A stretch of DNA of 64,000 nucleotides from an uncultured Poribacteria bacterium (GCA_951813565.1 OX638351.1:4096001-4160000); one strand, 5' to 3'; shown: positions 1,683 to 63,880, counted from the first letter of the stretch. Translations and numbers: made by a program. Notes: generated by a model not told the origin, from the sequence alone.

Positions 1683-1754
1683 CAAATCAAGAAATCAACG
1701 GTATGAACGACATTTAGTCATTCACCGGGTCCGAATGCCTCTTTGGCATTCCCC
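1683..1754 (+). mobile_element. CAAATCAAC-hairpin micro-insertion (degenerate nested pair) within a REP arm
   Basis: Sits in GCGAGGCAC^GGAGACCTCGC; compare the uninterrupted arm GCGAGGCACAGAGACCTCGC near 47244. Confidence 0.6.
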
Positions 1755-1789
1755 GGAGACCTCGCGCTACAAATCGGGTTAATTTGATA

Positions 1790-4675
1790 TTACTCAACCG
1801 AAACCGCAATGGGTTGATACCCAAATACCGCTTTTCCATTACTCATCAGTGGCGATTCACTGCCAGGGTTAGTAATATCAACAGTCCAGAGTTGTCCGTT
1901 GTTTTCGTAAATTATCCAATTTCCGCTGGGTGGCACCCAAACAGGACGGCTACCTCCCATTGCAGTTATCTGTTGTTCTATTGGTCTGCCGTTAGCGTTG
2001 AAGGTGACGACCCAAATTTGACGGGGATTGCCATTGAACCCGCGTGAAAAAGCGAGCGTTCTTTGGTCATCAGGATGCCATGCTGGTTCCGCGTCATCCG
2101 CAGGCGAAATCACAATCGGTTCAACGCTATTTTTTATATTGTCGAAAGCGTAAATATTACGGTTTAGACCAGCCTTAGGGTTTTCAATTGTTCCCGCAGC
2201 GGCATAAGCAAGCAATTGCCCATCTTTGCGCCATGCCGGATTAGACATTTCAAGTGCTGTTGAAGGAATTCGGAAGATTTTCTCGGTTCGGAGATGCTGA
2301 ATTACAACCCGTTTTCGTCCAATTGTTTCGGTATGTGCATACGCAATATATTCACCATCTGGAGAAATGGTAACATCTTCTGCCATTTGTCGATTATCAA
2401 GTAGAACCATGCTTTTGCCAGTAACAATATCTCTTATGATGACATTGTCGTCAAAATCATGGTAAACAAGCGTTCCAATATCTGATGCGGAGGGACGAAA
2501 CCCAGCACCGAGCGGGGCAACACGTGTGTCTACTGTAACGGCGGCCGCATCTTTCGTTGGGGTGCCAATTACCCGGTCAGCTGCAGGGGCAATACGCCAT
2601 AAAACACCTTCATGACTATAATAGATAAACGCCGACTCTGCAGCAAGTGAAAAACCGTCTATATTGACATCTACAGCTGTCCTCGCGTTAGGTTTCTTTT
2701 CACTATCTTGAGGGGTTTCTGTTTCTTTAGAAATATTTTGTGTGTTCGGTTGGAATTCCTTCTTGTCCTTGAGTTTCCATCCAGCACCATCTGCTTCAAA
2801 GTTAAACGCTAAACCTTTTGTCCAATACATCCATTCTTCAATCATTTTTCCATTCTCGGTATATTTGAAAATGTCTTCTGGTTCCCCATACATGCGTGCG
2901 ATGTTCCATTGTCCGCCATCTGAAAGTTCAGCCATTGTGCCTTTCTCATCAACATAGGACGCTAAAATGTCAATGTCTACATGAGGTGTTGTTTTACTGG
3001 GGAAGACGGTGAGCGCAGCTGGCATGCCGCGCACTGGTTGATGGGTGCCGTAAATCCCGATTCCGTCCGATGTGCCTGAACGTCCGTCTCTGTTTTGGTC
3101 AACAACTGCCATAATATAATATGTTCCGGGTTTGACATCAACGAGAAATCTACCATTATCGTCAAGAAATAGCGGCATCCACATCGGTGCACTGAAGTCT
3201 GGTGTAGTAGAAAGGCTTAAAAGACCGTCCGGGGCACGGTCTTGATTCTCCGAAGTTGGGTTTTCAGTGACTTTTTCTACGGTGTGAGAAGAGAAAAATG
3301 AGGTAATTTTTCCGGTGATACTACCCATCGGTTCTTCTGGAGATGCACTTGTGGGAGTACCGAGTGCTAAATTCCCAGTGAGTAGGTTGTTCTCTATAGC
3401 AACAAGTTGTCCTTCTGCATCATAACGTGCACTCATCTGAATATTAACAGCACGCGTTTCACCCACATCAAAAACTACCGCAGCTGGCGGGGTCGTAGCT
3501 ATGGAGTCAGTGCCTAAACCTCCCAATCTATCACCTTCACTATACCTACCGTCTCCATCCATGTCATGATTTGCAATGATGTAATACTCCCCAGGTGGTA
3601 GTTGAAAGCGAAACTTCCCTTCTGAATCTGTTGTGGCGCTTGCGATGGGATTCACTAAAGCGGATGTCGGATAAACTTCAACACGGACTTCTGTTTCCGT
3701 TTGGGGCGTTGGGGTTATACGACCAGAAATAATTGCGGTGTTTTTTTGATTTTCCGTTTGATGAGTCGCCGTGTAAGTGGCAGTAATCTGTATCTCCAAA
3801 TTTTCAGTAAATGTATTAGGCTTAATCAGTATTGGCTGTGGAAAGGCACCGCGTTTATATATATTTGTGACACCGTAAAATCCGAAGGTGTCTCCAGCAT
3901 CAAGTTTATTGCTGTTATTTTTGTCAACTATTGCCATCAGATAGTATTTACCGGGTTTCAATCTCAGTTCCCACTGTCCAGTCTTGGCATCAACAATAGC
4001 GATCCCTGCACGGTATTTCCAAGACGTATCTGTATATGCAAGAATAAGTCTTTTGTCTTTTGCAATACCGGTCTCTTTTGTATCTTTTAGAATCCCTCTA
4101 CATCCTGATGCTGCTCGGGTCAACTCAGCTTTAAATTGTTGGTATTCACTTGGTTGGTATACGTTTGCAGGCACAAGTTTCAGCTCGTCACCAACATTCT
4201 GAAGCCTGGCAGTTATTGGAATCTGTATACCTTTCAATGCAGCGTTTGCGCCTATATCAACCACTTGATGTTTTTGCGTTTCATTTTGCCAATCCTTAAT
4301 TCCTAAGACACCGTAACCATCACCCTCGTCAAATTTTCCAGAACTATCAACATCGACGTAAGCAACTAAATAATACCTACCCGGTTCCACACGTAGTTCG
4401 AATGCCCCTGTCCCTGAACGAGATAATCCACTGGTATAAAGGTCTTTGAGTTTTTCATCGCGGTACACTGATACGTTTGTTTGTGACAGGTCTTGTCCTG
4501 TCCAAATAACCATTCCAGACAGTTTGGCAGTAAAGTGGTTAGATGAAGATTGGGTGTTAGCTACATTCGGTGGCAATGTTTGGTTTGGCGATTGTTGTGC
4601 ATAGAGCATCAGATTACCGATGAATCCTATACTCATAACAAGTGCTAAATATATCAATCGTTTCATGAGTGCCAT
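1790..4675 (-). CDS. Large secreted protein: four Ig/prealbumin-like repeats with DxDxxG Ca-binding loops plus C-terminal TolB/PD40-like beta-propeller
   Basis: 961 aa, signal peptide; repeats PGxYY..D[VKMQ][DN]...D..G; C-terminal ISPDGEYIAY, NPAWRKDG, EPAWHPD, RPVWVPPSG. Confidence 0.7.
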   Translation of the reverse strand: MALMKRLIYLALVMSIGFIGNLMLYAQQSPNQTLPPNVANTQSSSNHFTAKLSGMVIWTGQDLSQTNVSVYRDEKLKDLYTSGLSRSGTGAFELRVEPGRYYLVAYVDVDSSGKFDEGDGYGVLGIKDWQNETQKHQVVDIGANAALKGIQIPITARLQNVGDELKLVPANVYQPSEYQQFKAELTRAASGCRGILKDTKETGIAKDKRLILAYTDTSWKYRAGIAIVDAKTGQWELRLKPGKYYLMAIVDKNNSNKLDAGDTFGFYGVTNIYKRGAFPQPILIKPNTFTENLEIQITATYTATHQTENQKNTAIISGRITPTPQTETEVRVEVYPTSALVNPIASATTDSEGKFRFQLPPGEYYIIANHDMDGDGRYSEGDRLGGLGTDSIATTPPAAVVFDVGETRAVNIQMSARYDAEGQLVAIENNLLTGNLALGTPTSASPEEPMGSITGKITSFFSSHTVEKVTENPTSENQDRAPDGLLSLSTTPDFSAPMWMPLFLDDNGRFLVDVKPGTYYIMAVVDQNRDGRSGTSDGIGIYGTHQPVRGMPAALTVFPSKTTPHVDIDILASYVDEKGTMAELSDGGQWNIARMYGEPEDIFKYTENGKMIEEWMYWTKGLAFNFEADGAGWKLKDKKEFQPNTQNISKETETPQDSEKKPNARTAVDVNIDGFSLAAESAFIYYSHEGVLWRIAPAADRVIGTPTKDAAAVTVDTRVAPLGAGFRPSASDIGTLVYHDFDDNVIIRDIVTGKSMVLLDNRQMAEDVTISPDGEYIAYAHTETIGRKRVVIQHLRTEKIFRIPSTALEMSNPAWRKDGQLLAYAAAGTIENPKAGLNRNIYAFDNIKNSVEPIVISPADDAEPAWHPDDQRTLAFSRGFNGNPRQIWVVTFNANGRPIEQQITAMGGSRPVWVPPSGNWIIYENNGQLWTVDITNPGSESPLMSNGKAVFGYQPIAVSVE

Positions 4676-4995
4676 GTCTCCATTTTGAGCAGGTTTACTT
4701 GTAGTGTTATTCTTTAATCTATTGCTTGCATGTTATCACATCTTTGAACAATTTTCAAGGAGATCATGAAGATGGGTGTGCAAAGTTTTTGCCATTAACC
4801 ACGTCCTTCTCTTGTGGAAGGGCTTTGTCCGCCCGATTTATTACCCAAAGGTAGCGCGTTTTGTCCACGCGCCGTTTACAGCATCTGAGGTCAGGACTCG
4901 GCGCGTTTACATGAAGATTAAGAAAATATTTCGGTAATTTTCTAACGATAGACATCTTGTTTTATGTTTTTCTTGTATGAGGTGCATTATCTGGT

Positions 4996-5146
4996 TGTCT
5001 GAATCGCGGAAGGCACAGAGAACACAGAGGACGCGGAAAATGCTTTTGTGTCTGCTACATTTCCTTTCGCAAGAGACGGGTCGGTAACAAAGAAACTCTT
5101 AATTCCGCGTCCTCTGCGTTCTCCGCGATAATCCGTGATTCAGACA
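4996..5146. repeat. Long imperfect palindrome (REPIN-like)
   Basis: TGTCTGAATCGCGGA..CAGAGGACGCGGAA versus TTCCGCGTCCTCTG..TCCGTGATTCAGACA. Confidence 0.7.
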
Positions 5147-6219: not shown

Positions 6220-7843
6220 AAGAATCGCTGCAAAGTTTGGTGCATGCCCTATTCAATATAAGCTGCTACTGCAAACGGAGAAGACAGTAGAGGAACGAGC
6301 ACTTGAGGGAAAACAGGGAACGGCAAAACTCTCACTCGCTGTGACCTGTGCTTTCTGTTTTTTAGCAAGCATCTTTTCAGCGTTGCCGGTGTTCTTTGGC
6401 ATGGACGTGTTCACCTACGCACTCATTGGTGTCACGATGTCTATGTTCATCGTAGGGATGTGGACTCTCCCTTACTTTGACCTTCTCCTTAGTCCTATAA
6501 ACTATCCTGTTGTCGCACATACGCCCATGTCATCACGCACCTATTTTCTTGTAAAGTTAACACAGATTCTCAAGTATGCTGTCTTGTTGTTAATTTGTCT
6601 GAATATCTTTCCATCAATTTGCGGTCCCTTCATCCGTGGAGATAACACCACTATTCTACGCTACTTTTTCCCTATCTTTTATATACCTATTGCCTTTATG
6701 GCAGGATTTTTCACGATTGGGGTGATGACCGCATTCGCCGGGTATTTGACCAAACTCTATTCTGTAAAGAGACTCCGAAAAATATCTAAATCCGCTCAGT
6801 TTATATTGCCGCTTCTTTTTCCTGCATTCTTTTTTCTCATACCAACCGATTTAGTAGCAGACAATTATAAATCGGTTCTAAAGTGGCTATATGTGCTTCC
6901 AAACGGTTGGTTTGCTGGAGCAGTATCACTTGCCACCAGTACGATTGACCGTCCTGAGTTTACCCGTGATGTGATTTTAGCTGGAATAGCAATTTTTTCA
7001 ACGCTTCTACTGGTCTTAATTCCGCTCCGAAGTATAGCAAAGACTTATGCAAAGTATCTCTCCTTTCTGATGGAATCTGGCAGTAGGCAGAAGGACAAAC
7101 TACGGATAAAACAATCTTTCCTCGCGCGATTTTTCCGATCACGTGATGTCTACGCAGGTTTTTGTCTCAGTGCATCCTACATGCGACGTGATAGACACAT
7201 TCTAAATCAACTCGCTTCTGGAGCGGTTGTAAGTGTCATGATGATTGCAATGTTCTTTGTTCGGAAAATATATCCTATAGAATACATTGCGTATCACTAC
7301 ACTATCGGTCTTAGTCCAGGGTTAACTGGTCTCTCCGTCTTTCTTGGGGTGGTTTTAGTCTTCGGTTTTCTCAGTTCTGTCGGGTATTCGGAGCATTGGA
7401 AAGCCTCGTGGATGCTATCTCTTGTCCCACTTCGGAAGCCGTATGACTTATGGCGTGGCGTTGAAGCAGCTACCTTTATCTATATTGTCTTTCCTTACAC
7501 ACTCCTGTTTTTTATAGTTGCTACAGTTTTCTGGGGTGTTATGGGCATATTTTTTATCTTGCCGGGACTCCTCGTTGTGCTATTTTCAGTCATCACTTAC
7601 CCAAAACCGGAATCCGGGATACCTCTTTCCAAAGAAGCAGTTGAAATAGATAGAATGGCAGGGTGTCTTGCTTATGGTATAAGTATGATTATAGCAGGTG
7701 TTTTAGTCGGTGTTCAATTTTTAGCTGCTTTCATTCATGTGTGGGTGTATATTGCAGTCTATTGCGTGATAGTAATTGGTGGACTTATCGGTTTTATCAA
7801 ATTTTACAAAAAAGAATCAATGAAGGAAACCTCTGATGCTTGA
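6212..7843 (+). CDS. ABC exporter permease
   Basis: 543 aa polytopic membrane protein overlapping the ATPase stop; paralog of next gene. Confidence 0.8.
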   Translation: MLERIAAKFGACPIQYKLLLQTEKTVEERALEGKQGTAKLSLAVTCAFCFLASIFSALPVFFGMDVFTYALIGVTMSMFIVGMWTLPYFDLLLSPINYPVVAHTPMSSRTYFLVKLTQILKYAVLLLICLNIFPSICGPFIRGDNTTILRYFFPIFYIPIAFMAGFFTIGVMTAFAGYLTKLYSVKRLRKISKSAQFILPLLFPAFFFLIPTDLVADNYKSVLKWLYVLPNGWFAGAVSLATSTIDRPEFTRDVILAGIAIFSTLLLVLIPLRSIAKTYAKYLSFLMESGSRQKDKLRIKQSFLARFFRSRDVYAGFCLSASYMRRDRHILNQLASGAVVSVMMIAMFFVRKIYPIEYIAYHYTIGLSPGLTGLSVFLGVVLVFGFLSSVGYSEHWKASWMLSLVPLRKPYDLWRGVEAATFIYIVFPYTLLFFIVATVFWGVMGIFFILPGLLVVLFSVITYPKPESGIPLSKEAVEIDRMAGCLAYGISMIIAGVLVGVQFLAAFIHVWVYIAVYCVIVIGGLIGFIKFYKKESMKETSDA

Positions 7844-9449
7844 GAAAATTGCGGAAATGTTTGGCGTGTCCTCAACCCAGTACAGCTATCTTCTACAGAC
7901 AGAGAAGATGGTCGAAAAACGGGCACTTAAAGGACAACCCCTTTCTTCAAACATATTGAACTACGTGTTTAGTTTTCTGATAAGTGCAACGTTTTTCTTT
8001 ATTCCGTTACTGATAAACATTTCTGTCTATAGTTATGCACTTATAGGAATAACTGTATCAATGGTGATGATAGGGATATGGACGCTCCCCTACTTTGATA
8101 TTCTTATCTATCCCATAAACTACCCCGTTGTGGCGCACACACCGATATCATCGCGCACCTATTTTCTCGTCAAGTTGACACAGATACTCAGTTATACTGT
8201 CAAGTTGTTGATTTGTCTAAATCTCATACCTGCTATCGGCGGCATTTGGATTCGTAGTGGAGAATCTTCTCAACTCCAATACCTTTTTCCGTTGGTCTAT
8301 CTTCCTATCGCTATTATTTCCGGCATATTCACCGTTGGTATTATGACAACATTTGCAGGGTATTTGACAAAACTTTACGCCTATAAAAAACTACGAAATG
8401 TTGCGAAATTTTTTCAAGGATTATTTCCTCTACTGTTTCCATCAGTCTGGATGATCGTTTATTTTTTCCCTAAAGACATCCCCAAAGATACCACTATAGA
8501 AATGTTTTCCTCCGCTGCAAAATGGTTCTACGCACTGCCGAACGGTTGGTTTGCTGCCACAGCATCGGTTTTGCTTGGACAAATAGAAGTCCGTTTCCTG
8601 ATTTTAACTGCACTTGCTGTTATTTCAACCGCTTTCTTAGTCCTTGTACCACTTCAAAGCATCGCTAAAACATATTCAAAATACCTCTCTTACCTAATAG
8701 AAGTCGATGTCAAACAGAAATTTGAGTTAAAAGTGAAAATCCCTCGGTTCGCCAGAATCATTAAAAACCGTGTTATCCGTGCAGGTTTTTGTATGAGTTC
8801 TGTATATTTCTACCGAGATAAAAGGATGTTACAAGGTATATTAGGTATGCTTGGAGGTTCCATAGGCTTTTTTATTTTTTTTACACAAGCTGAAAAATTT
8901 TCTCTGGGATGGTTTATGAAGTCATACATTCCCGGACTAAATCTCGCGTTTTTTATGATGTCCTGTTTTTTCGGTGTAGCTTTTGTAAACATTTTTCTTT
9001 CTATTTTCAGGTATTCAGAACATTGGAAAGCATCTTGGATGTTTAGGGTAATACCTCTTACGGCGCCTCTTGATTTATGGCGCGGCGTACAGATAACCAC
9101 AATACTCTATACTGTTATGCCGTATGCGCTTTTGCTGTACGCTATTGCTATCGTTTTTTGGCGGGCAGCAGGGATTTTATATGTTTTACCGAGTCTGGTC
9201 TTTATCTTGTATAATATCCTGTCTCACCCGAAACCTGAATCAGGTATACCATTCTCCGAGGAAATCAACCCAAAGAAAGGCGGAATGGGGTGTGCGCATT
9301 TTATCTATGTTAATCTGGCAATAGTGGGATTCATCGGTATCCATTTTATCACTTATATGATTCATGTGTGGGTATATATTGGGGTGTATTGTGTCAGCGT
9401 TGTGGGTGGACTTATCGGGTTTGTTTATCTTTTTTCAAAAAGAAAATAA
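7836..9449 (+). CDS. ABC exporter permease (paralog)
   Basis: 537 aa; shares PINYPVVAHTP, LPNGWF, YSEHWKASW, PKPESGIP with the previous gene. Confidence 0.8.
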   Translation: MLEKIAEMFGVSSTQYSYLLQTEKMVEKRALKGQPLSSNILNYVFSFLISATFFFIPLLINISVYSYALIGITVSMVMIGIWTLPYFDILIYPINYPVVAHTPISSRTYFLVKLTQILSYTVKLLICLNLIPAIGGIWIRSGESSQLQYLFPLVYLPIAIISGIFTVGIMTTFAGYLTKLYAYKKLRNVAKFFQGLFPLLFPSVWMIVYFFPKDIPKDTTIEMFSSAAKWFYALPNGWFAATASVLLGQIEVRFLILTALAVISTAFLVLVPLQSIAKTYSKYLSYLIEVDVKQKFELKVKIPRFARIIKNRVIRAGFCMSSVYFYRDKRMLQGILGMLGGSIGFFIFFTQAEKFSLGWFMKSYIPGLNLAFFMMSCFFGVAFVNIFLSIFRYSEHWKASWMFRVIPLTAPLDLWRGVQITTILYTVMPYALLLYAIAIVFWRAAGILYVLPSLVFILYNILSHPKPESGIPFSEEINPKKGGMGCAHFIYVNLAIVGFIGIHFITYMIHVWVYIGVYCVSVVGGLIGFVYLFSKRK

Positions 9450-9486: not shown

Positions 9487-9700
9487 TAGGCGTCAATTTA
9501 GGGATTTATTTCAGGTTTCACACATTTTAACCCAAACAACACCGCAACCCGATTGTAGGGGCGGGTCTCTGTGCCCGCCCATTGTCTAAATACATCAGAT
9601 ATGGCGGGGCACAGAGACCCCGCCAAATGCCAAAAAGCGCATTTGGCGTTGATTTGGCCCTACAATGTGTGACGGGATTTGCCCACTAAATTGACGCCTA
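9487..9700. mobile_element. MITE with 15-bp TIR, flanked by a 23-bp direct repeat; carries a REP doublet
   Basis: TAGGCGTCAATTTAG / CTAAATTGACGCCTA; direct repeat TGGGTAGAGCGCATCAAAACCCA at 9464-9486 and 9701-9723. Confidence 0.85.
9622..9656 (-). mobile_element. 35-nt CAAATCAAC-hairpin micro-insertion
   Basis: Reverse strand CAAATCAAC GCCAAATGC GCTTTTTG GCATTTGGC inside GTAGGGC^GGGGTCTC; empty equivalent near 47251-47270. Confidence 0.85.
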
Positions 9701-11228: not shown

Positions 11229-11698
11229 AGTTGTGATTTCTCCTCTGAAAATTTAAGTTTTGTTACAAATCATTCGTGGTCGCGACTGAAAACCGAAACC
11301 GATAAATTTATCAGACTCTGAACAGCGAAATAATATCCTGCATTTTCCACGCTAAAATCAGGATTCCCGCGAGCAGAATTATGTACCACACAATCATCGC
11401 TTTTACTTGTTTTTTCTTGAAGAACGAACGCGGTGGTCTGTTCTGTTTCATTAGTTTGCTCCTTATACCTATCCGTCGAAACGGATTGCAACTCCTACAT
11501 AGATGCGACAATAATAGCATATCTTATCCAGAAGCGTCAAGCCAAATCCCAGAGTCGGGCAGGGTTATTTAGTTTTCTATATTTCCGACGATTTTTATCA
11601 TACACGTTAATGCTTATAATAGTATCGTCCGTTGGGTAGAGCTTGCGAAACCCATAGGCATCAATTTAGTGGGCAAATCCCGTCAAACCTTGTAGGGC

Positions 11699-11732
11699 CA
11701 AATCAACGCCAAATGCGCGTGTGGCATTTGTC
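11699..11732 (+). mobile_element. 34-nt CAAATCAAC-hairpin micro-insertion at a junction of two REP types
   Basis: TGTAGGGC[CAAATCAACGCCAAATGCGCGTGTGGCATTTGTC]GGGACTAA. Confidence 0.8.
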
Positions 11733-12030
11733 GGGACTAAAGAGCGTGTCCGCAACGTTTTCTATAAACATATCGTCCCTACGGGACTAAGGAAAATACC
11801 GAATTTATTTTTTAATCTTCATTTAGTTTGCGTCTCATAAGGCACAAACTGAAAGTTTGTGCTACAACTTCTATTGTCCATTATCTTTCCAAGACAAGTT
11901 TAGCAAAGTGTCCCAATAATTTCAAAGTTCACTATAAATAGCCCTGCCACTATAAAACTTTTCTGTTGTCATTTTTTTAGAGATATGGTATTGTAAAAGA
12001 TAAGATTTTGACCACACTAAAGAGGACAAC

Positions 12031-26078: not shown

Positions 26079-26322
26079 AATTAATTGAGGGATGTGCATA
26101 AATAATTCCCATGTTAAAGTATGTGTTTAAAGGTAGTCCGCACACGCCGTGGGTTTCCGTCCACAAGTTCAAAGAGGCGCAGCATGCCACACGCGCATGC
26201 TGCGTTGATTTGGCAATGAATTGCGCGACTACAAACGGCATTTCTATAAATCAAGCGGCACCTGGCGTCTGTCCCTGTCTGTGTTGATCCGCCAAATATT
26301 TATGCACACTCCTCAATTAATT
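26079..26322. mobile_element. MITE-like element with about 26-bp imperfect TIR containing REP pieces
   Basis: AATTAATTGAGGGATGTGCATAAATA / TATTTATGCACACTCCTCAATTAATT. Confidence 0.65.
26179..26212 (-). mobile_element. 34-nt CAAATCAAC-hairpin micro-insertion
   Basis: Reverse strand CAAATCAAC GCAGCATGC GCGTGTG GCATGCTGC in GAGGC^GCAATGAATTGCGCGACTAC; near-identical empty arm at about 9751-9775. Confidence 0.85.
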
Positions 26323-26341
26323 AGACATTATTGATCTGTGC

Positions 26342-26372
26342 ATCAACGCAGCATGCGCTTTTGGCATGCTGC
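26342..26372 (+). mobile_element. Micro-insertion with truncated leader, at the left arm of a REP doublet
   Basis: ATCAAC GCAGCATGC GCTTTTG GCATGCTGC followed by GGGAGTGATCTCCGA..TCGGAGATCACTCCTAC. Confidence 0.7.
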
Positions 26373-26841: not shown

Positions 26842-26879
26842 TATTAAGAGGGATAATGAATTGCGCGACTACAAACGCG

Positions 26880-29079: not shown

Positions 29080-29368
29080 TAACTGTCAATTTAAGCACAT
29101 AATTACCGGATTATCTCTTGTGGGAGGGCTTTGAAAGCCCGACTTTGTGAGATTCAAACAGGTAAATCCAAATCAACGCTGAATACGTGTTTGGTATTCA
29201 GCGGGTGTCACAGCGTTGATTTAAAGGTAGCAGGTATACTCCGTCCGCCGTCCGCTCACATATTTTTGGAAAATATACGGCACACGGCGTGTGCCTACTA
29301 CTTTGCATGTGTATTATCAAGGTTGAAAACTCTCTCACAAGAAAGATTACACGTTAAATTGACACCTG
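29080..29368. mobile_element. MITE (TGTCAATTTAA ends) containing nested REPs and a micro-insertion at 29169-29202
   Basis: TAACTGTCAATTTAAG..TTAAATTGACACC; internal TCTTGTGGGAGGG..CTCTCACAAGA; CAAATCAAC GCTGAATAC GTGTTTG GTATTCAGC. Confidence 0.7.
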
Positions 29369-40815: not shown

Positions 40816-40825
40816 CTTTTTTCTC

Positions 40826-43408: not shown

Positions 43409-43460
43409 AGGTTTGCGTTCCTATTTGATTCGGTTCTTTTCAACAACTGTAATAGCAATT

Positions 43461-43476
43461 AGCAAATCTGATGCCA
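43461..43476 (-). promoter_or_regulatory. Putative sigma54 (-24/-12) promoter
   Basis: Reverse strand TGGCATCAGATTTGCT (GG-N10-GC), about 50 nt upstream of the 43408 start. Confidence 0.6.
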
Positions 43477-44057
43477 GTTTTGAGTTATTGTTGAAAGTAC
43501 AAATAGGTTTCGTTTAGCAGGAATTTTTTAGCATTGATGGGCGGTTATATCGTCAAAAAGCAACATCATTGCCCATAATTTGAACATTTACAGCCATTAT
43601 AGTTCAAAGGCAAGGTTAGGGTGTTCCGTGTCAAGAGGGTAGCCTGCACGAAAACGGGCAATTATGGTGCATGTTGCACGATATAGTGCATTTGTGGAAA
43701 GAAGATTAGATTGTGTGGCTCATGTAAAGAATGAGTGCTAATCAAAAGGTTTAACCCGCGTGGCCATTGCCTTCATTAAAAACAACCGCACACACTTTTT
43801 ACATGAGCGGATTGTGTTATATTGAAAGTTGAAGATATGTGAACACCCTATGATAGACGCGGTTTCAAACCGTGCCTATTACAGGGTGTAAATGATTATA
43901 CGTTTTCTATAATGGATATGTGTTAAGACAGTGGAAAAATGGGCGCAGTAAAAGAGTGTAAGAAAAGAAATCAGTACGCGGACGTAAGGTAAGTCTGCGA
44001 GTTACATCTCACAATTATAGATGAACGCTGACATTGTCCCTATGCTGCGCAAACTGC

Positions 44058-46946: not shown

Positions 46947-47107
46947 TGTAGTATTCTCCTTTTGAAGGTAATTGGCTGCTATATGTTGCATGCAAACAAT
47001 TTGATTGATGTCTTTTTCTAAAGTATACCACAAAGACGGTGAGAATGCAATTTTACGTGGGAATGGGTGTAGGTTAGAATATTGGTAGGCATCAAATTAC
47101 TACAGTC

Positions 47108-47285
47108 TATCTCATAAATTGTTAAATACGGTTCCTTACACAGGATCTACATTCATCGTAGGGGCGGGTCCCCGGTGAATGCCAAAAGGCATTCGGACCG
47201 TTGATTTGGTGCCCGCCCATTGTTTACACTTATGAGAGAGATGGCGAGGCACAGAGACCTCGCCCTACAAATGATTTATGAGATA
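47108..47285. mobile_element. MITE-like element (TATCTCATAAAT TIR) with REP doublet and 35-nt micro-insertion at 47174-47208
   Basis: TATCTCATAAAT / ATTTATGAGATA; reverse-strand CAAATCAACGGTCCGAATGCCTTTTGGCATTCACC in GGGCAC^GGGGACCC. Confidence 0.7.
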
Positions 47286-52586: not shown

Positions 52587-53447
52587 ATGCAAGAAGTACG
52601 TAATTCTAATGATCCAATACCGTTGTCTCCAGGAGAGAAGTTGATGACTCCAGAACAGAAGTTTTTCTTTGACTTACGGGGTTGGCTTCTGCTACCATCG
52701 GTATTGTCAGAGTCGGAAATCGAAGAGATGAAAGCGGAAGTGTATGCAGGTGCAAGGCAGAGTTATCAAGGTGCTTTACAGAATTTACTTGACCATCCGG
52801 CAATTGTAGGTATTCTAAGCGAAATCCTTGCTGATGAACGATTTATCTTTGACGATTGCTACGGCTTTCGGTGTGAGAATTCGATTACGACGGTCAGAAA
52901 ACCCGGCTGGAGCACTTCTTCTAATAGTGGTACTGCGGTGCCGCATGTCGTACGACCTCCACAACAAGCAAATGCGATGCGGTATCAGGTGGCAGGTGGA
53001 AAGATATTCGCAGGACTCACACGTGTGATTTGGGAACTTGAGGAGGTGAAAGCTGGACAGGGAGGGACTACTTTTCTGAGTGGGTCTCATAAGGCACATT
53101 TCAACTACGGTGGACCGGACCCAAACCGCCCGAATATTAGTGAATCTCCTTGGGAAAATAAAATAAAGGATATGATGGAGGATTATAGTTGTCCCCCTGG
53201 GTCAGTACTTATTTTCACTGAAAGCCTTATCCATGCTACCAACAACTGGACGAACCCTGACAATCCGCGTTGTGCTGTGTTTAATTGTTACAACTCAATA
53301 TGGGCGCAATGGTTTCGGTTGAATCTAAGTCATGAAATTATTGAAACGATGCCGCCGAAACGGCAATCTTTATTCCGTGGAACTTGGGCAATAGGTGGGG
53401 GTCCTGGCGGAAACCGTCAGTATTCGTTGGATAATACTACCAAATAA
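52587..53447 (+). CDS. PhyH-like Fe(II)/2OG oxygenase
   Basis: FFFDLRGW, GGTTFLSGSHK, GSVLIFTESLIH, NPRCA. Confidence 0.8.
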   Translation: MQEVRNSNDPIPLSPGEKLMTPEQKFFFDLRGWLLLPSVLSESEIEEMKAEVYAGARQSYQGALQNLLDHPAIVGILSEILADERFIFDDCYGFRCENSITTVRKPGWSTSSNSGTAVPHVVRPPQQANAMRYQVAGGKIFAGLTRVIWELEEVKAGQGGTTFLSGSHKAHFNYGGPDPNRPNISESPWENKIKDMMEDYSCPPGSVLIFTESLIHATNNWTNPDNPRCAVFNCYNSIWAQWFRLNLSHEIIETMPPKRQSLFRGTWAIGGGPGGNRQYSLDNTTK

Positions 53448-53471
53448 TTTTAAAACTATAAGGAGATATTA

Positions 53472-54311
53472 ATGTCAAAAGAAACGTTAAACGGTGAACC
53501 AAAACCAATGACTCCAGAACAGAAGTTTTTCTTTGATCTTCGCGGTTGGATTTTATTACCATCAATATTATCGGACTCAGAAATCGAAGAGATGAAAGCG
53601 GAAGTATATGCGGGCGCAAGGCAAAGTTATCAGGGTTCACTGCAGAACCTCCTTGATCATCCTGCAATTGTAGGTGTTCTAAATGAAATTCTGTCCGAAG
53701 ATCCGTTTGTACACGATGATTGCTACGGATTTCGATGTGAAGGGTCTTTTACCACAGTCCGTGAATCTGGTTGGAGTGTAACATCACGTGGTGACAACGG
53801 CTTACCACACGTTGTGCGACCACCGCAACAAGCAAATGCGATGCGGTATCAGGTTGCTGGTGAAAAGATATTCGCTGGACTTACTCGTGTCGTATGGGAA
53901 CTTGAGGAGGTAAAGGCCGGACAAGGCGGCACCTCTTTTCTGAGTGGATCGCATAAAGCGCATTTCAACTATGGAGGCCCCGACCCTTATCGTCCGAATA
54001 TCGGCGAGTCGCCTTGGGAGAATAGCATGCGGGATATGATGGACGACTATAGCTGCCTACCGGGTTCTGTCGTCATTTTCACTGAAAGTCTTGTGCATGC
54101 GGCAAACGACTGGACGAATCCGTCAAATCCGCGCTGTGCTGTCTTTAATTGTTACAACTCTATCTGGGCACAGTGGCATCGGTTGAATCTGAGCCATGAA
54201 ATCATTGAAACGATGCCGCCGAGACGACAATCATTATTCCGCGGGACGTGGGCAATTGGCGGTGGTCCTGGTGGGAATCGTGAGTATTCACTGGAAAATA
54301 ATACTACGTGA
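53472..54311 (+). CDS. PhyH-like Fe(II)/2OG oxygenase (tandem paralog)
   Basis: Highly similar to the preceding protein over its full length; AAGGAG upstream. Confidence 0.8.
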   Translation: MSKETLNGEPKPMTPEQKFFFDLRGWILLPSILSDSEIEEMKAEVYAGARQSYQGSLQNLLDHPAIVGVLNEILSEDPFVHDDCYGFRCEGSFTTVRESGWSVTSRGDNGLPHVVRPPQQANAMRYQVAGEKIFAGLTRVVWELEEVKAGQGGTSFLSGSHKAHFNYGGPDPYRPNIGESPWENSMRDMMDDYSCLPGSVVIFTESLVHAANDWTNPSNPRCAVFNCYNSIWAQWHRLNLSHEIIETMPPRRQSLFRGTWAIGGGPGGNREYSLENNTT

Positions 54312-58889: not shown

Positions 58890-59390
58890 TCAGTTTTCAA
58901 CACCTGATTCATTCCATTGTGCGTGGCGCTGAAGGGTACGGATATCAATCCCTAACGATTCAGCTGCTTCACGTAAGGATGTAAACTTCTCAATACGCAT
59001 CTGCGCAACAGCGCGTAGAATTTGATTTTGATTCATTTTTCCTATGTTAAGTGCTTCCGCTTCTTCTGCAGTTTTTGCATTGACGGAATTTCTCACGCTA
59101 TACCACGGTTGCGGTGTTTGCGTGGAGAGTTCATGCATAATTATATGCTGCGTCTCTGGATGGAGTGCTTCCCATATCGCGTGCTGCGTATCAGAGGCAA
59201 GTGTTCCCCATATAGAGATTAGAGTCTGTAAGAACTCAGGATATATATTTGGAAAATCTTTTGGTTCAAGAGTATCAGTAGTGGCGAGCGCAATAGCAGT
59301 TTGAATAGTACTTCTGAGCTGCCGAATATTGCCGGGCCACGCAGCTTGTTCAAGACGAGTGAGTGCCTCTGGACTAATGCCTTTAACGCT
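58890..59390 (-). pseudogene. C-terminal remnant of a sigma54-dependent activator (NtrC/Fis family)
   Basis: Reads GISPEALTRLEQAAWPGNIRQLRSTI into a Fis-like HTH (SLREAAESLGIDIRTLQR); no start and no AAA+ core. Confidence 0.75.
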
Positions 59391-59395
59391 CCCCC

Positions 59396-59803
59396 GTCAA
59401 ATCCCCATGCTTTAGCTTGTGGGATGTCCACGGCTAACAATGTGATGGACAGCACGAAATGTCCAGCGAAAGCGGAATAAAACCCATCGCTATAACGAAA
59501 TCTATAAAGTTGGTGGATAGCGTCCATATCAAGCCACTGCAGCACTGCAGCACTGCAGACTGGAATGCGTGAGCGGAGGCAACCCCTCCCGAAGTCTAAG
59601 GACTTGTCGCGTGGCGTGCCTGGTAGAAAGGGCAGCTATAAAATGGGTGGAAACAGAGCCAACCCACGACATTGCGAAAAATAAATCAAACGGGCAGGCT
59701 TGGCTGCCTAAAGTGGAGCGACACTAAGACGGTGGACGCTAAGCGAAAACCGCAGTCGCGAGGAAGCACAAGCCCCTACCTTTAGGTAGTGGGTACCTAT
59801 GAC
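59396..59803 (+). mobile_element. Non-autonomous IS200/IS605-type element without ORF
   Basis: Left hairpin GTCAAATCCCCATGCTTTAGCTTGTGGGA; right hairpin AAGCCCCTACCTTTAGGTAGTGGG..TGAC. Confidence 0.65.
59690..59803 (+). ncRNA. Candidate TnpB omega-RNA (reRNA) scaffold
   Basis: GCCT..GTGGAG..TAAGAC..GCA..GAAGCA.AAGCCCC-hairpin order resembles tnpB right ends as recalled; not model-scored. Confidence 0.5.
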
Positions 59804-59911
59804 TTATCTTTTGCTAATTCCTATAGTAGCTTATGTTTTTAACACATTGCGGTAACAGGTATTCCAAAATCTTAGCAATTGAAGCGTGAAATATTAGACC
59901 CGTAAAGAATT

Positions 59912-59927: not shown

Positions 59928-60221
59928 TATTTTCTTAAGTTGCAATGTAACTCTTTCGCAAATATTTGGAGTGTTTAGTTAGACATAGGACTTTATGACA
60001 TAGGCACATACCAAGTGCCTTAATGCTGTAGGCGCGCCTGTCCCTCTCCCCTAAAGGTGCGCTTACAAAATCGCGATTTGGGTAGGCGCGCTAATCAAAT
60101 CGCGATTTATGGTGGTAGCGGTCTTCGGATCGCTACTGTCTTTTTTATAGTAGATTTTATACCATTTCCATGTGATTATATTGCATTGTGTCTTAGGTCA
60201 AGTTTCACTATGCCCTACCCA

Positions 60222-60465
60222 TAGGTGTCAACTTAAGAAAAAAATGATGGATTTTCTCTTGTGGGAGGGAAACTTTGTCCGCCCGATTTTGTGAGACTCA
60301 AACTGTTAAATCCAAATCAACGATGAATGCGCCTATGGCATTCATCCAAATCAACGCAGCATGCGCGTCCGACATGCTGCCAAATCAACGCTGAATGCGC
60401 GTGTAGGCATTCAGCGGGGTTGAAAACCCCTCCCACAAGAAGGTGTATCCTTAAGTTTACACCTA
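60222..60465. mobile_element. MITE (same end family as 9487-9700) with REP doublet and triple micro-insertion array
   Basis: TAGGTGTCAACTTAAG / CTTAAGTTTACACCTA. Confidence 0.75.
60313..60415 (+). repeat. Tandem array of three different CAAATCAAC-hairpin units
   Basis: Units 60313-60346, 60347-60380, 60381-60415. Confidence 0.9.
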
Positions 60466-60608
60466 TGGGTAGAGTGAAGCGAAACCCAATTCAACCGTCT
60501 TGACAGTCCTAAAGAGTTGGGTTTCACTTATTTTCAGAAATATAGACCTCAAATGGGTCAACAACCTCTCTTTAGGGTTTGTTTTTATTGTCCATTTCCG
60601 TTCTACTT

Positions 60609-60641
60609 CACCGAATGGCATAGGCGCATTCGGTGTTGATT
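60609..60641 (-). mobile_element. Degenerate micro-insertion
   Basis: Reverse strand AATCAAC ACCGAATGC GCCTATG CCATTCGGT. Confidence 0.55.
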
Positions 60642-60753
60642 CCCTACCGGATTTATCAAACTCACGTTACATTAACGACTTGTGCCAGTTAACATTTTGT
60701 TTTGTTGGTTTTCACATATATTTGCATTTGTGCTATAAACATATCGTCCCTAC

Positions 60754-60822
60754 CAAATCAACGCCAAATGCGCCAAATCAACGGTCCGAATGCCTTTTGG
60801 CATTCCCCGTATGGCATTTGGC
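60754..60822 (+). mobile_element. Micro-insertion with a second unit nested in its loop (60774-60808)
   Basis: CCCTAC[CAAATCAACGCCAAATGCGC[35 nt]GTATGGCATTTGGC]GGGACTAA. Confidence 0.9.
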
Positions 60823-60873
60823 GGGACTAAAGAGTGCTCGTCCAATCATTTTCTATAAACATATCGTCCCTAC

Positions 60874-60907
60874 CAAATCAACGCCAAATGCGCTTATGGC
60901 ATTTGTC
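60874..60907 (+). mobile_element. 34-nt micro-insertion
   Basis: CCCTAC[CAAATCAACGCCAAATGCGCTTATGGCATTTGTC]GGACT. Confidence 0.85.
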
Positions 60908-61055
60908 GGACTGAAGAACATATAAATATATGATAATGACTTACAAACATTTTCTTTTGTGAAATAAAGTTCTACATATGGTTATTTAGCACAACTCGTT
61001 ACACTAACAAACAACTGAGTAAAGAAAAACCTTTAACTTTCATCTTAAATTCCTC

Positions 61056-62891: not shown

Positions 62892-63037
62892 CAAGTTGCT
62901 ACTTACAAAATTTTGAACAAAAAGACGATGTTTTTCCTAAAAAACAAGGGTTTTTCGTTGATTCTGGATGTCTTTTGTTATAAATCGGGGTTAGAAACCC
63001 CTCCTACAAGAGAATTTACGAAATCGGTAGCAACTTG
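62892..63037. mobile_element. MITE-like element (CAAGTTGCTAC TIR) with a REP arm
   Basis: CAAGTTGCTAC / GTAGCAACTTG; internal AAATCGGGGTTAGAAACCCCTCCTAC. Confidence 0.55.
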
Positions 63038-63164
63038 GGTTATATTTCAGAAAGATTTACTTAACCGAACTATTTTTATAAGCCATATTAATTTTCGTAT
63101 TAGGAGGTACCAGACCATTTTAGAACGTATCTACAGACTTATTTCAAGTTTAAAAGGTGGAACA

Positions 63165-63635
63165 ATGGTGCCGACAGCTGTAGTGCTGAGTCCCGATAGT
63201 TACGCGGAAGTTGTTGCTGAACTATTTGAAACATCCGAATCGGAAGGTGATGAAGCACAGGGACTTGAGCATCAACTGGGATTACCTCCTATTTCAGTTC
63301 GGTCAGATGATACGGATATTGTCGTTGTAAAGGAATTGGTGCCGAACCCGTGTCCAATTTGCCATCATCCGCTTAAGTTTCTCCGAGAATTGATTGAACG
63401 GTTTGAGAAGGAAGAAACCAATTTGATTAGGTGTCCGCTTGGACACCGCTATTCCGGGATGATGAAGGTTTACCATTTGAACATTTTTCAGCAATCGGAA
63501 AACTCCGAAACGGTGAAAAAAGTTACTGAATGCCCAGCATGTGGCGGTAAAAAAATCCAGTACTTAGGTCCAGCGGAGATGTTTTGTTTAGATTGTGACT
63601 GGGATAGTGGTATGGTTGCTCGGTATAAAATGTAG
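63165..63635 (+). CDS. Hypothetical double zinc-ribbon protein
   Basis: CPIC, CPLGH, CPAC, CLDC; start at ATG 63165 after AAGGTGG. Confidence 0.65.
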   Translation: MVPTAVVLSPDSYAEVVAELFETSESEGDEAQGLEHQLGLPPISVRSDDTDIVVVKELVPNPCPICHHPLKFLRELIERFEKEETNLIRCPLGHRYSGMMKVYHLNIFQQSENSETVKKVTECPACGGKKIQYLGPAEMFCLDCDWDSGMVARYKM

Positions 63636-63747
63636 TATTTTCTGGATTTACGCAAATTTCGGCAGAATAGGTGTTTATAGTGAAATCCATAATTTTTTGG
63701 ACATTCTGTTCTTATGCAGATTCAAACATACCATAAATATCCGAGGC

Positions 63748-63880
63748 GACAAGTCATGGCGAATACCACACGCGTATTCGCCCAAGTGCGCTTGGCGTTG
63801 ATTTGGCAATGAATTGCGCTTGGTGAATGCGCCAAATCAACGGTCCGAATGCCTTTTGGCATTCCCCGTATGGCATTCAC
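63748..63880. mobile_element. Cluster of nested micro-insertions in both orientations
   Basis: Minus-strand unit 63748-63805 with inner hairpin 63758-63782; plus-strand unit 63833-63867 nested in GTGAATGCGC^GTATGGCATTCAC. Confidence 0.75.

Follow-up and report, generated by a model that had tools for sequence, protein, structure and literature searches.

Leader-hairpin units in the window

The stretch of DNA analyzed here, referred to as the window, comprises 64,000 nt (positions 4096001 to 4160000) of the 5.43-Mb genome of an uncultured Poribacteria bacterium (G000). Between its ORFs lie copies of a 33- to 36-nt unit that consists of a leader (N-R-AATCAAC) and a hairpin with a 9-bp stem and a 7- to 8-nt loop. 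Using a unit profile trained on 119 perfect genomic units, we obtained 15 matches in the window, including five that are weak or degenerate (E 0.01 to 0.6), at 9622-9656(-), 11699-11730, 26179-26212(-), 26342-26372, 29169-29202, 47177-47208(-), 60313-60344, 60347-60380, 60381-60415, 60611-60641(-), 60754-60773, 60774-60805, 60874-60905, 63761-63780(-), and 63833-63864. With a double leader at 1683, these matches make up about 16 to 17 loci; the coordinates given in the preliminary description were right, while its count of about 19 copies was too high. All copies in the window fall between ORFs, as had been claimed. At no more than one mismatch, the leader CAAATCAAC occurs 48 times in the window, compared with a mean of 28.9 and a maximum of 44 in 100 shuffles. 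The Rfam 15 covariance models gave no match at the gathering score in the window and just three chance-level matches (E 0.5 to 1) in the region 60150-61000. The loci and the empty sites are as follows (^, junction):

1683..1754, + strand: double leader (CAAATCAAG-AAATCAAC), then two stacked sister B/C-type hairpins (sequence reading, leader matches)
9622..9656, - strand: 35-nt unit with stem GCCAAATGC and 8-nt loop in the REP GTAGGGC^GGGGTCTCTGTGCCCCGCC (profile E 2e-9, fold)
11699..11732, + strand: 34-nt unit 3' of GTAGGGC, followed by GGGAC (profile, fold)
11774..11790, + strand: empty site CGTCCCTAC^GGGAC with junction 11782/11783; filled paralogues at 60754 and 60874 (repeat family D16)
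26179..26212, - strand: 34-nt unit with stem GCAGCATGC in GCGCAATTCATTGC^GCCTC of a GTAG-tagged palindrome (profile E 7e-10)
26339..26372, + strand: unit whose leader has diverged (GTGCATCAAC), with the REP GGGAGTGATCTCCGATTCCCGAC after it (profile, model positions 4-34; repeat family D11)
29169..29202, + strand: 34-nt unit at TAAATC^GGG (profile)
47174..47208, - strand: 35-nt B-type module with the same leader and hairpin GGTCCGAATGCC-TTTT-GGCATTCACC, inside the palindrome GGGCGGGCAC^GGGGACCCGCCC (weak profile match)
47250..47275, - strand: empty REP GTAGGGC^GAGGTCTCTGTGCCTCGCC (sequence reading)
60313..60415, + strand: three-unit array with differing stems (GATGAATGC, GCAGCATGC, GCTGAATGC) at TAAATC^GGGGTTGAAAACCCC (profile, fold)
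60610..60643, - strand: G-leader unit (GGAATCAAC, stem ACCGAATGC) 3' of CCGGTAG (profile)
60754..60822, + strand: A-type unit at CCCTAC^GGGAC, whose loop GC^GTATG contains a nested 35-nt B-type module at 60774-60808 (profile, fold)
60874..60907, + strand: 34-nt unit at CCCTAC^GG(G)AC, the un-nested sister of the 60754 copy (profile, repeat family D16)
62981..63002, + strand: empty site TAAATC^GGGGTTAGAAACCCC with junction 62986/62987 (sequence reading)
63748..63805, - strand: composite with leader CAAATCAAC at CATTGC^ and a GCCAAG-type hairpin holding a further nested hairpin (weak profile match)
63833..63867, + strand: 35-nt B-type module nested in an older hairpin, whose loop it enters at GCGC^GTATGGCATTC (weak profile match)

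The arrangement of a double leader and two hairpins at 1683..1754 recurs elsewhere in the genome. Three pairs of filled and empty sites had been proposed within the window, and all three hold. The site CGTCCCTAC^GGGAC lacks a unit at 11782/11783 and carries one at 60753/60754 and 60873/60874. TAAATC^GGGGTT has its empty copy at 62986/62987 and its filled copy at 60312/60313. For GTAGGGC^G, the empty copy lies near 47261 (minus strand) and the filled ones at 9622-9656(-) and 11699.

Unit architecture

Genome-wide, the profile search identified 481 good unit copies, and the exact 9-mer CAAATCAAC occurs 649 times on both strands, with ~57 expected. The leader core is AATCAAC; in column counts over 161 and 40 distinct units, leader positions 3 to 9 are 93 to 98% conserved, and neither unit end carries GTAG or CGTC. 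The first two leader bases change with the base on their left. In the hairpin, the fold, the top base pairs, and the loop are conserved, while the sequence of the lower stem is free, with compensatory switches at pair 3 (C-G/A-T/T-A), pair 4 (A-T/G-C), pair 5 (A-T/C-G), and pair 8 (G-C/A-T). Of the cells counted, 89.7% are paired compared with 79.2% after shuffling (500 shuffles; maximum, 80.9%), and single-stranded DNA folds of six units reproduced the hairpin, with z-scores of −3.0 to −3.6 for five units and −1.0 for the other.

The preliminary description of a leader-plus-hairpin unit is borne out, but the family is larger than it suggested, and includes a second, sister hairpin type (B/C-type; 145 copies) that has the same leader as the A-type unit. 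Units occur singly (n = 325) or in direct arrays (n = 61) of up to 9 units, giving 386 units or arrays in total. The only inverted pairs were those formed by units filling the two feet of one host hairpin.

Units are present or absent as one piece

For 247 of the 386 units or arrays, we identified an empty site matching the joined flanks, all comparisons being between paralogues, and in the commonest outcome the length difference equals the unit or array exactly, with offset 0. For 179 of the 386, a non-self empty paralogue extends 40 nt or more to both sides. Among ~290-nt host repeats that are 99.0 to 99.7% identical without gaps, one and the same point holds 0, 1, 2, 3, or 5 units. Moreover, 45 of the 145 B/C-type modules lie inside an A-type loop, and their removal restores the A-type hairpin. 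These data support the earlier claims that the unit is discrete, very small, and precisely present or absent, and that it nests both in GTAG-type REPs and in other units. Filled and empty sites differ by the unit alone, between a left flank ending in C or G and a right flank starting with G, and the leader at one unit end is not an inverted copy of the stem arm at the other; the absence of target duplications and of terminal inverted repeats had also been claimed, and both absences exclude that the unit is a MITE. Nor is the unit a fixed part of a longer repeat: it occurs in 141 flank contexts, 110 of which are singletons, and one context, GTAGTCGCGCAATTCATTGC^GCCTC, accounts for 22 arrays with three stem types. 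The unit enters DNA as one piece and the target is not duplicated; possibly, it also leaves as one piece.

Only 4 of the 481 units lie within ORFs of at least 150 aa, although such ORFs make up 77.8% of the genome; this rarity is a selfish-DNA signature. We conclude that the unit is very probably a discrete mobile DNA module, non-coding and non-autonomous.

Target site and array growth

Insertion is 5' of a G, mostly of GGG, and the 3' flank begins with GGG in 66 of the 141 contexts. Left base and leader most often combine as C^CA (53 contexts) or G^TG (26 contexts). Accordingly, the insertion at C^G that had been described is valid for units with a CA leader, but not for those with leaders starting with TG, CG, or GG, which are preceded by G or T. 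In many cases, the target G opens the G-rich arm of a hairpin, in a REP or elsewhere, or lies in the GC^GT of another unit's loop. In a strict test, the unit was located at a hairpin foot or loop edge in 20 of 124 contexts compared with 5% of random GGG sites, while the predicted pairing at the junction did not differ from that at random GGG sites. The 3' edge of the unit is fixed and the 5' edge shifts by 1 to 2 nt among contexts. When the host is a GTAGGAG REP, the unit takes the place of the A of GTAG or requires a GTGG variant; here and in GCGACCT-CCA-GGTCGC hosts, the unit substitutes for 1 to 2 bases of the host instead of splitting it cleanly.

Because C is the last base of the unit and G the base after it, insertion recreates a C^G site; arrays therefore lengthen at the hairpin-proximal end, and units become nested in one another. 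Array-internal units have C|CA in 95 of 95 cases, even if the first unit has a TG, CG, or GG leader. We observed no orientation bias of the units along the genome, whose flat GC skew deprives the replication-strand test of power, and a weak bias relative to neighboring genes (109 in the same and 142 in the opposite orientation).

Distribution among relatives

The relatives of this bacterium are Candidatus Poribacteria, not cyanobacteria, and we found the unit in only one family of this phylum. Within the genus, 38 of 39 genomes contain the unit, with 0 to 422 copies across the 39 species and dominant stems that differ by species, a pattern of lineage-specific bursts. G001, which is 97% complete, has neither units nor Y1 matches. 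The number of Y1 matches does not follow the number of units (21 matches and 5 units in G009; 4 matches and 393 units in G006).

Candidate movers

The best explanation overall, which we put forward tentatively, is that this module of leader and hairpin is moved in trans as folded single-stranded DNA. A protein encoded elsewhere would recognize the leader together with the hairpin, and the first two leader bases, which covary with the base preceding the insertion, would play a guide-like role. The proposed parallel is with Y1 HUH enzymes (RAYT/TnpA-REP and IS200/IS605 TnpA), which recognize a hairpin together with its 5' tag and select the cleavage site via bases 5' of the hairpin. In published work, TnpA-REP cuts at CT or CA dinucleotides on either side of the REP hairpin, the 5' tag of the REP helps to select this site, and guide bases 5' of the hairpin determine the cleavage site in IS200/IS605 (PMC8266576).

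Among named candidates for the mover, a RAYT-like enzyme ranks first, but that a Y1/RAYT-type enzyme moves the unit is doubtful. G000 has 10 Y1_Tnp matches; none of the 10 lies inside the window, which bears out the preliminary statement that it holds no candidate mobilizing gene. None of the 10 genes has units on both sides, and only 2 have one unit within 1.5 kb. Some, at 242 kb and 5.07 Mb, are REPtrons, i.e., flanked by REPs that differ from the unit; the REPs invaded by the unit carry a GT(A/G)G tag. The HUH/RAYT mechanism suggested earlier faces counter-evidence from two relatives, G023 (one contig, 92% complete; 49 well-formed units) and G010 (25 well-formed units), both with mixed arrays and dominant stems of their own and without matches to PF01797; unit presence is thus not tied to RAYT in a comparison that is weakened by incomplete assemblies. 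The mover may be an unrecognized enzyme.

Two other transposon types were rejected. The IS110-family recombinase (PF02371) has no match in G000 but does in control genomes, ruling out an IS110-dependent element. G000 contains four tnpA-tnpB copies of IS200/IS605 and tens of further tnpB-only matches; the ends of the resident 1.73-kb tnpA-tnpB element carry the hairpin CCCCTACCTTTAGGTAGGGG, which is unrelated to the unit and rules out a short element derived from it.

Relationship to known systems

The closest analogues of the unit are REP/REPIN elements and Elhai's small dispersed repeats. The latter, SDR1-8 (Elhai et al. 2008, Genome Res 18:1484), are said to be 21 to 27 nt long, to have nested copies and a shared fold with compensatory changes, and to occur in one coherent genome group, moved by an unknown agent. 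The unit behaves similarly in that it is very small, inserts precisely in many contexts, nests, and has a conserved fold. The SDR1-8 repeats of Nostocaceae are likewise very small and insertion-like, occur in many contexts, and interrupt a short sequence at one exact position; SDR5 inserts between bases 3 and 4 of HIP1 (PMC4390886; PMC5861425). By contrast, the unit, compared with SDR1-8 by description, belongs to another phylum, Poribacteria, is longer (33 to 36 nt), is built from a leader plus a hairpin, and targets C^G or N^GGG, not HIP1 as described there for SDR5. HIP1 is rare in this genome (50 copies).

REP/BIME/REPIN-RAYT elements resemble the unit as short, non-coding extragenic hairpins behind a conserved single-stranded 5' motif, with hundreds of copies and compensatory stems, and are presumably mobilized in trans by an enzyme encoded in single copy. 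A REP is described as a 20- to 50-nt palindrome after a conserved tetranucleotide, mostly GTAG (PMC8266576), with CGTC as an alternative (PMC3733652). GT(A/G)G-tagged REPs and REP-flanked Y1 genes exist in this genome, but here the REPs are targets, not the moving part. Membership of the unit in REP/REPIN-RAYT was rejected on four counts: its tag is AATCAAC and not GTAG/CGTC, no Y1 gene is flanked by units to form a REPtron, direct arrays and nesting take the place of inverted doublets, and units persist in genomes lacking a Y1 match. Di Nocera et al. 2013 reported REP families regularly inside longer palindromes in Anabaena variabilis, Thermomicrobium roseum, and Halothiobacillus neapolitanus, with empty targets not found in two of these species (PMC3733652). 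Those REPs are GTAG/CGTC-tagged dimers, each in one fixed host palindrome (PMC3733652), whereas the unit is a differently tagged single hairpin in 141 contexts, many with empty paralogues.

IS200/IS605 elements share with the unit the lack of target duplication and insertion beside a specific short sequence; their hairpin is recognized on single-stranded DNA, which for the unit is a proposal. The unit has one hairpin rather than distinct left and right ends. Short palindrome-associated derivatives of IS200/IS605 are reportedly ~100 nt or more, far above the 34 nt of the unit, and the resident ends are unrelated.

Alternative routes of spread

Copying during replication or repair without a dedicated enzyme is a less favored and, in our view, unlikely route. 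A nascent strand would stall at a hairpin or G-run, switch by microhomology to a distant unit (through GGG at one junction and the C or G preceding the leader at the other), copy it, and switch back, and the units would be templated patches rather than transposons. This fits their occurrence in 38 of 39 genomes regardless of Y1 content, the constant 3' edge next to a 5' edge varying by 1 to 2 nt, the replacement of 1 to 2 host bases in GTAGGAG and GCGACCT-CCA-GGTCGC hosts, and synteny breaks that coincide with unit-bearing spacers. Both junctions also share short identities across donors and targets (GGG on the right, C or G on the left), so that leader variant and left base would be inherited together. 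However, microhomology of 1 to 3 nt is very short for hundreds of identical ectopic events, spread is limited to leader-plus-hairpin modules while the far commoner REPs are absent as 34-nt patches, and the strong conservation of AATCAAC and loop points to a protein that recognizes them.

Movement through an RNA copy, in which a unit transcript is reverse-transcribed at a nick beside a G-run, appears improbable. An RNA intermediate has reportedly been proposed for small dispersed repeats of Nostoc. With reverse transcription at such a nick, the 3' junction would stay constant and the 5' junction would vary, as observed, and a hairpin with compensatory changes would fold as RNA too. G000 encodes two reverse transcriptases, but the one next to Cas1 scores best against CRISPR-associated models and the other against the defense reverse transcriptase Drt4, and neither locus revealed a group II intron or retron-type element. 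The orientation bias relative to genes (109 versus 142) is weak, and the Rfam families lack a match, which also argue against this route.

It is very improbable that spread and conservation reflect selection for a DNA or RNA signal used by the host (for instance, a protein-binding site or an mRNA-stabilizing hairpin) rather than selfish mobility. In favor of such a signal, nearly all units are intergenic (all but 4 of 481, counting long ORFs), leader and fold are kept across a bacterial family, and REPs, the nearest analogues, are ascribed such roles (PMC8266576). Against it, copy numbers vary between 0 and 422 from species to species within one genus, units nest and build arrays of up to 9, their position and orientation to genes are not fixed, and function leaves arrival at new sites unexplained.

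Returning to the preferred reading, a leader-plus-hairpin module moved in trans, the unit lies in hundreds of copies between the genes of this sponge-symbiont bacterium and is among the smallest mobile DNAs seen.

Abundance and placement of the unit

The chromosome studied (G000) is closed and has a size of 5.43 Mb and a G+C content of 43%; the window spans G000:C1:4096001-4160000. The host is a sponge-symbiont poribacterium, because type IX secretion sorting domains are present in proteins encoded in the window, G000 has only 50 copies of the HIP1 octamer of cyanobacteria, and all nine loci with one exact 34-nt unit, in a scan of one genome per species, belong to Candidatus Poribacteria.

The exact 9-mer leader CAAATCAAC occurs 649 times in G000 compared with ~57 occurrences expected from base composition on both strands, and 119 of these 649 sites continue into a perfect 9-bp stem that encloses a loop of 7 or 8 nt. 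Using a profile built from these 119 perfect units, we identified 481 matches in G000 at E ≤1e-3 and 928 at E ≤10; copies are 34 nt (n = 333), 35 nt (n = 136), 36 nt (n = 10), or 33 nt (n = 2) long. In the window, the profile matched 15 places, at all of which the preliminary description had placed a copy of the unit. At 1683, a double leader precedes two hairpins of the type of the sister module, which shares the leader of the unit (A-type) and has another hairpin (B/C-type). The intergenic location that had been proposed also held, in that every copy in the window falls between ORFs and only 4 of the 481 units lie within ORFs of ≥150 aa, which make up 77.8% of the genome.

Anatomy and fold

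Column counts were made on distinct sequences (34-mers, 161; 35-mers, 40). In the leader, positions 3 to 9 (AATCAAC) are conserved at 93-98%, while position 1 (C, T, or G) and position 2 (A or G) are variable. The top of the stem (AT-G/A-C pairing with G-C/T-AT) and loop positions G19, C20, T22, T24, and G25 are conserved, and the lower stem shows compensatory changes.

Base pairs (number of sequences) at individual stem positions
Stem pair 3: C-G, 78; A-T, 29; T-A, 18
Stem pair 4: A-T, 70; G-C, 61
Stem pair 5: A-T, 121; C-G, 29
Stem pair 8: G-C, 118; A-T, 23

In total, 89.7% of the cells are paired, whereas 500 column shuffles averaged 79.2% and did not exceed 80.9%, a comparison that does not give a probability because the copies are related. 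Of six units of the window that were folded as single-stranded DNA, five formed the described hairpin with z scores of −3.0 to −3.6, and the sixth, in which the stem end is mismatched, had a z score of −1.0. Additional stem types, e.g., GCAGAATGC, GCCGAATAC, and GTCGAATAC, are found elsewhere in the genus.

The sister module has the hairpin GGT(CC/AT)GAATGCC-TTTT-GGCATTCCCC, is 35-36 nt long, and is present in 145 copies. The leader pattern N-R-AATCAAC occurs 1,815 times compared with ~467 expected occurrences. Thus, the preliminary description correctly recognized a real family of units but put its extent too low. We also noticed that a double leader, CAAATCAA-GAAATCAAC, is frequent 5′ of GGTATG- and GCTACA-type hairpins (e.g., G000 positions 134080 and 235134; window position 1683), an arrangement that points to duplication of the leaders themselves or to leaders that can stay behind.

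Filled and empty sites

The 481 units fall into 325 single units, 45 pairs, 9 triplets, and 7 longer arrays (maximum of 9 units), which makes 386 single units or arrays. After in silico excision of the unit or array at each of these loci, the joined 40+40-nt flanks were used as queries against G000. For 247 of the 386, a junction-spanning paralogue was found within this one genome; most commonly, the length difference equaled the unit or array, with an offset of 0 or one that fell within 1-3 ambiguous bases. Using 200-nt flanks, with self-hits excluded and ≤6 gap positions, an empty paralogue spanning ≥40 nt on each side was identified for 179 of the 386. Several ~290-nt host repeats that bear 1, 2, 3, or 5 units at one point align to a single empty copy at 4904191-4904480 with 99.0-99.7% identity and 0 gaps.

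Clustering of the flanks gave 141 contexts, of which 110 are singletons, and a single context may hold several stem types. For instance, the 22 arrays at GTAGTCGCGCAATTCATTGC^GCCTC have the stems GCCAAATGC (9 arrays), GCAGCATGC (7), and GCCAAATAC (6); several paired positions distinguish these stems, and in-place change is therefore a far less economical explanation than repeated insertion at one kind of site. The sister module provides a further case: 45 of its 145 copies sit at GC^GT in the hairpin loop of an A-type unit, and their removal restores the A-type hairpin with ≤1 mismatch in 9 bp. The window contains two examples.

Nested sister modules in the window
60774-60808: nested sister module
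63833-63867: nested sister module

The three pairs of filled and empty sites originally pointed out in the window were all recovered. All filled and empty sites compared here are paralogues in one genome. Likewise, the proposed lack of a target duplication was borne out, as filled and empty sites differ by the unit alone and the last three bases of the flank and of the unit are unrelated, and the unit has no terminal inverted repeats. We consider it very probable that the module is mobile DNA.

Target choice

For target statistics, each context was represented by one unit. If these have a CA leader, the base to their left is C in 82% of contexts, and the first three positions of their right flank are G in 77%, 59%, and 56%. 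For units with G at leader position 2, the left base is G in 63% and the right flank is G in 90%, 76%, and 67%. Among the pairs of left base and leader, C^CA, with 53 contexts, and G^TG, with 26, are the commonest. Accordingly, the C^G rule suggested initially applies to the CA-leader type and fails for the others, such as the 26 G^TG contexts. The common feature of the targets is insertion 5′ of G, usually GGG; the right flank begins with GGG in 66 of the 141 contexts.

In the large host families, this G-run is the first hairpin arm, or the unit lies in the loop against the 3′ arm, and the REP CTTGTGGGAG^GGGTTTTCAACCCC^GATTT is filled at both feet with the units facing inward. A strict test for a hairpin-foot or loop position was positive for 20 of 124 contexts compared with 5% of random GGG sites, and predicted pairing at the junction showed no difference from random GGG sites. 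Hairpin-foot placement is, therefore, a tendency, and we give the rule as N^G(GG).

REPs of the GTAGGAG type are found filled as GT-GAATCAAC...C-GGGAG and empty as GTAGGAG. Either the A was replaced or the target was a GTGGGAG variant, a REP form that does exist. In one REP loop, two bases (CA) were replaced by the unit. From these two cases, the insertion has a constant 3′ edge and a 5′ edge that shifts by 1-2 nt.

Arrays

In all 95 units that are preceded by another unit, the junction between the two is a C directly followed by CA, even where the first unit of the array has TG, CG, or GG after G. Because the last base of a unit is C and the GGG of the host comes next, each insertion recreates a C^GGG site; arrays would, in this way, grow by new CA-type units that enter beside the host G-run. 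Repeated insertion is in keeping with arrays that mix stems, such as the one at 60313-60415, which combines three stem types. Tandem duplication is also indicated, as identical units, or a block of two units, recur in runs.

Orthologous loci and sequencing reads

In the nearest species, glgB identity is only 84-87%. In eight relatives, homology to the 60.2-61.0 kb spacer ends at ~60150, and the next gene is located elsewhere. The spacers at 11.2-12.0 and 25.9-26.9 kb are synteny breakpoints in four relatives (G008, G012, G014, and G017). More generally, we observed that the unit-rich spacers 11229-12030, 25816-26879, and 60150-61055 coincide with breaks in gene order relative to the nearest species.

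Public sequencing runs contain the strain (up to 0.90 of the sampled words, with 9 rows at half or more), and short-read (Logan) contigs of these runs break in repeat-rich spacers. Two joints leave out sequence of the window, one of them 36 nt (from 60606 to 60643) and the other 37 nt (from 63829 to 63867), and each has <30 nt on one side; both may originate in paralogous empty sites.

Three other repeat types were noticed in the window. A ~420-nt repeat at 59383-59804, beside a unit-rich spacer, has at least five other copies in G000 with 95-97% identity and weaker copies in relatives, and may be a MITE or a small IS fragment. Coding segments at 6416-9422, 30324-31454, and 52644-54104 (families D8-D10, D13, and D15) are tandemly duplicated with 75-80% identity, which points to paralogous neighboring genes. 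Finally, four large ORFs on the minus strand at 37400-47033 (206, 885, 860, and 991 aa) have a 126-nt period with a 43-nt core in up to 32 copies; our guess from the repeat length is that they encode WD40/beta-propeller repeats.

Distribution of the unit

The A-type pattern matched G000 422 times and its reversed control 0 times. Within the genus, it is present in 38 of the 39 other genomes, with 0 to 393 copies per genome; in a sister genus, 48 of 65 genomes have 1-17 copies each; and in the family as a whole, it is present in 89 of 111 genomes. A search of the remaining 64 genomes of the phylum gave two single matches, neither of which forms the hairpin, and viral contigs gave 0 matches to a unit pattern. 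The dominant stem and the copy number vary between species, as expected for bursts after speciation.

Candidates for moving the unit

G000 contains 10 matches to Y1_Tnp (PF01797), four of which belong to a ~1.73-kb IS200/IS605-type element with tnpA and tnpB; the tnpB part alone has tens of further ~1.26-kb matches in G000. We rejected the unit as a derivative of this resident element, as the hairpin at its ends (CCCCTACCTTTAGGTAGGGG) is unrelated to the unit. Three further Y1 genes are RAYT-like and flanked by REPs of their own (REPtrons), and another RAYT-like gene lies at 3098010.

Y1 transposase loci in G000
G000:C1:3744522-3746253: IS200/IS605-type element
G000:C1:228254-230011: IS200/IS605-type element
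G000:C1:2158614-2160370: IS200/IS605-type element
G000:C1:4319136-4320896: IS200/IS605-type element
G000:C1:242089-242412: RAYT-like Y1 gene (REPtron); flanking REPs of type GTAGGAGCGAGCTCCAGCTCGCGAC
G000:C1:5070893-5071213: RAYT-like Y1 gene (REPtron); inverted GGCGAGGTTAGGAAACCTCGCC copies on the flanks
G000:C1:3549623-3549949: RAYT-like Y1 gene (REPtron) with an internal TAG stop; GTAGGAG-tagged REPs on both sides

At the gene at 242089, the REPs are in tandem on one side, and the single REP on the opposite side bears a unit. The GGCGAGGTTAGGAAACCTCGCC REP has ~142 copies (≤2 mismatches), of which seven are split by unit stacks at CTC^GCC. One of the three REPtrons has a tandem run of GTCGCGAGCTGGAG(C/G)T...CCTACA REPs.

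An enzyme of this Y1/RAYT type is the best named candidate for the mover, and we regard it as a tentative one. In published work, TnpA-REP binds folded single-stranded REPs and requires their 5′ tag; it cuts at CT or CA dinucleotides on the 5′ or the 3′ side of the hairpin, with the tag aiding the choice of site in one case. In IS200/IS605, guide bases 5′ of the hairpin select cleavage and target sites (PMC8266576). These results are consistent with such an enzyme acting at such places, and leader bases 1 and 2, which co-vary with the left base, would on this view be a guide-like feature. However, several results speak against a RAYT as the mover. None of the 10 Y1 genes is bordered by units on both sides, and just 2 of them have a unit within 1.5 kb. 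Moreover, PF01797 has no match in two relatives, G023 (one contig) and G010, which nonetheless contain 49 and 25 well-formed units, respectively, together with mixed arrays and stems of their own, and unit counts do not track Y1 counts.

G023 and G010 also have 253 and 212 matches, respectively, to GTAGGAG-type REPs, many as opposed pairs 49 nt apart; these are REP populations without a detectable RAYT. In the relative G001, we counted 0 units and 0 Y1 matches and just 17 matches to REPs, a combination that agrees with several models.

Next comes a template-switch or repair process using bases shared by the flanks, which we consider rather unlikely. The cumulative GC skew of G000 is nearly flat and does not define origin and terminus, so that the 196 to 190 split of units carries no information on replication-strand bias. 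An RNA route is more doubtful still: in tandem spacers, 109 units have the same orientation as the genes and 142 the opposite one, which is no strong bias, and a search of the window against Rfam gave no family matches. A retroelement reverse transcriptase was rejected, as the only reverse transcriptases of G000 are CRISPR associated or Drt4-like, and an IS110 recombinase was rejected for want of any IS110 match in G000.

Reverse transcriptases of G000
L056 (G000:C1:3987500-3995500), 1492-4562, minus strand: CRISPR-associated reverse transcriptase adjoining cas1 (adaptation module)
L057 (a second G000 locus), 3250-4785: Drt4-like defense reverse transcriptase

Comparison with known elements and significance

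The unit is like REPs in build (tag plus hairpin) and like the small dispersed repeats (SDRs) of Elhai in behavior (very small, precise, and nested). The cyanobacterial small repeats of Elhai 2008 are reported to be very small, precise, and nested, with the mover left open. A cyanobacterial (Nostocales) origin or an identity as SDR, raised by the WD40 and nested repeats, was rejected given the type IX secretion sorting domains, the HIP1 count, and the relatives in Poribacteria. The unit lacks those defining features of REP/REPIN elements, MITEs, and IS200/IS605 derivatives that were tested. From earlier work, REPs inside other palindromes were already known (PMC3733652), and SDR5 inserts at a fixed point of HIP1 (PMC4390886 and PMC5861425). 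Among the papers listed in our literature searches, none dealt with such elements in Poribacteria, and a search with the 9-mer leader gave unrelated papers only.

Mobile DNA of ~34 nt is close to the lower size limit for recognition and movement, and this unit shows how far the information needed for transposition can shrink: to a tag of 7 bases, a fold, and a loop. The family offers unusually clean study material, with a closed chromosome that holds hundreds of sites, both filled and empty, with several stem alleles, and with a leader variant whose two bases co-vary with the base at the target. The order of units in an array may record the sequence of insertions. The question of the mover raised by Elhai's repeats can now be addressed with oligonucleotides and a few candidate proteins. 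In practice, spacers with units coincide with synteny breaks and with short-read contig breaks in sponge-symbiont assemblies.

A speculative reading, which we think improbable in its entirety, is that the AATCAAC-hairpin modules are a new class of ultra-small DNA transposons made of tag and hairpin, in which the first two bases would program the landing base (CA after C, and TG or CG after G) and the mover, common to this family of Poribacteria, would lie outside the known Y1/RAYT, IS110, and retroelement families. If true, the modules would be a natural minimal guide-like system for the insertion of single-stranded DNA, with C^G or G^G as the chosen sites.
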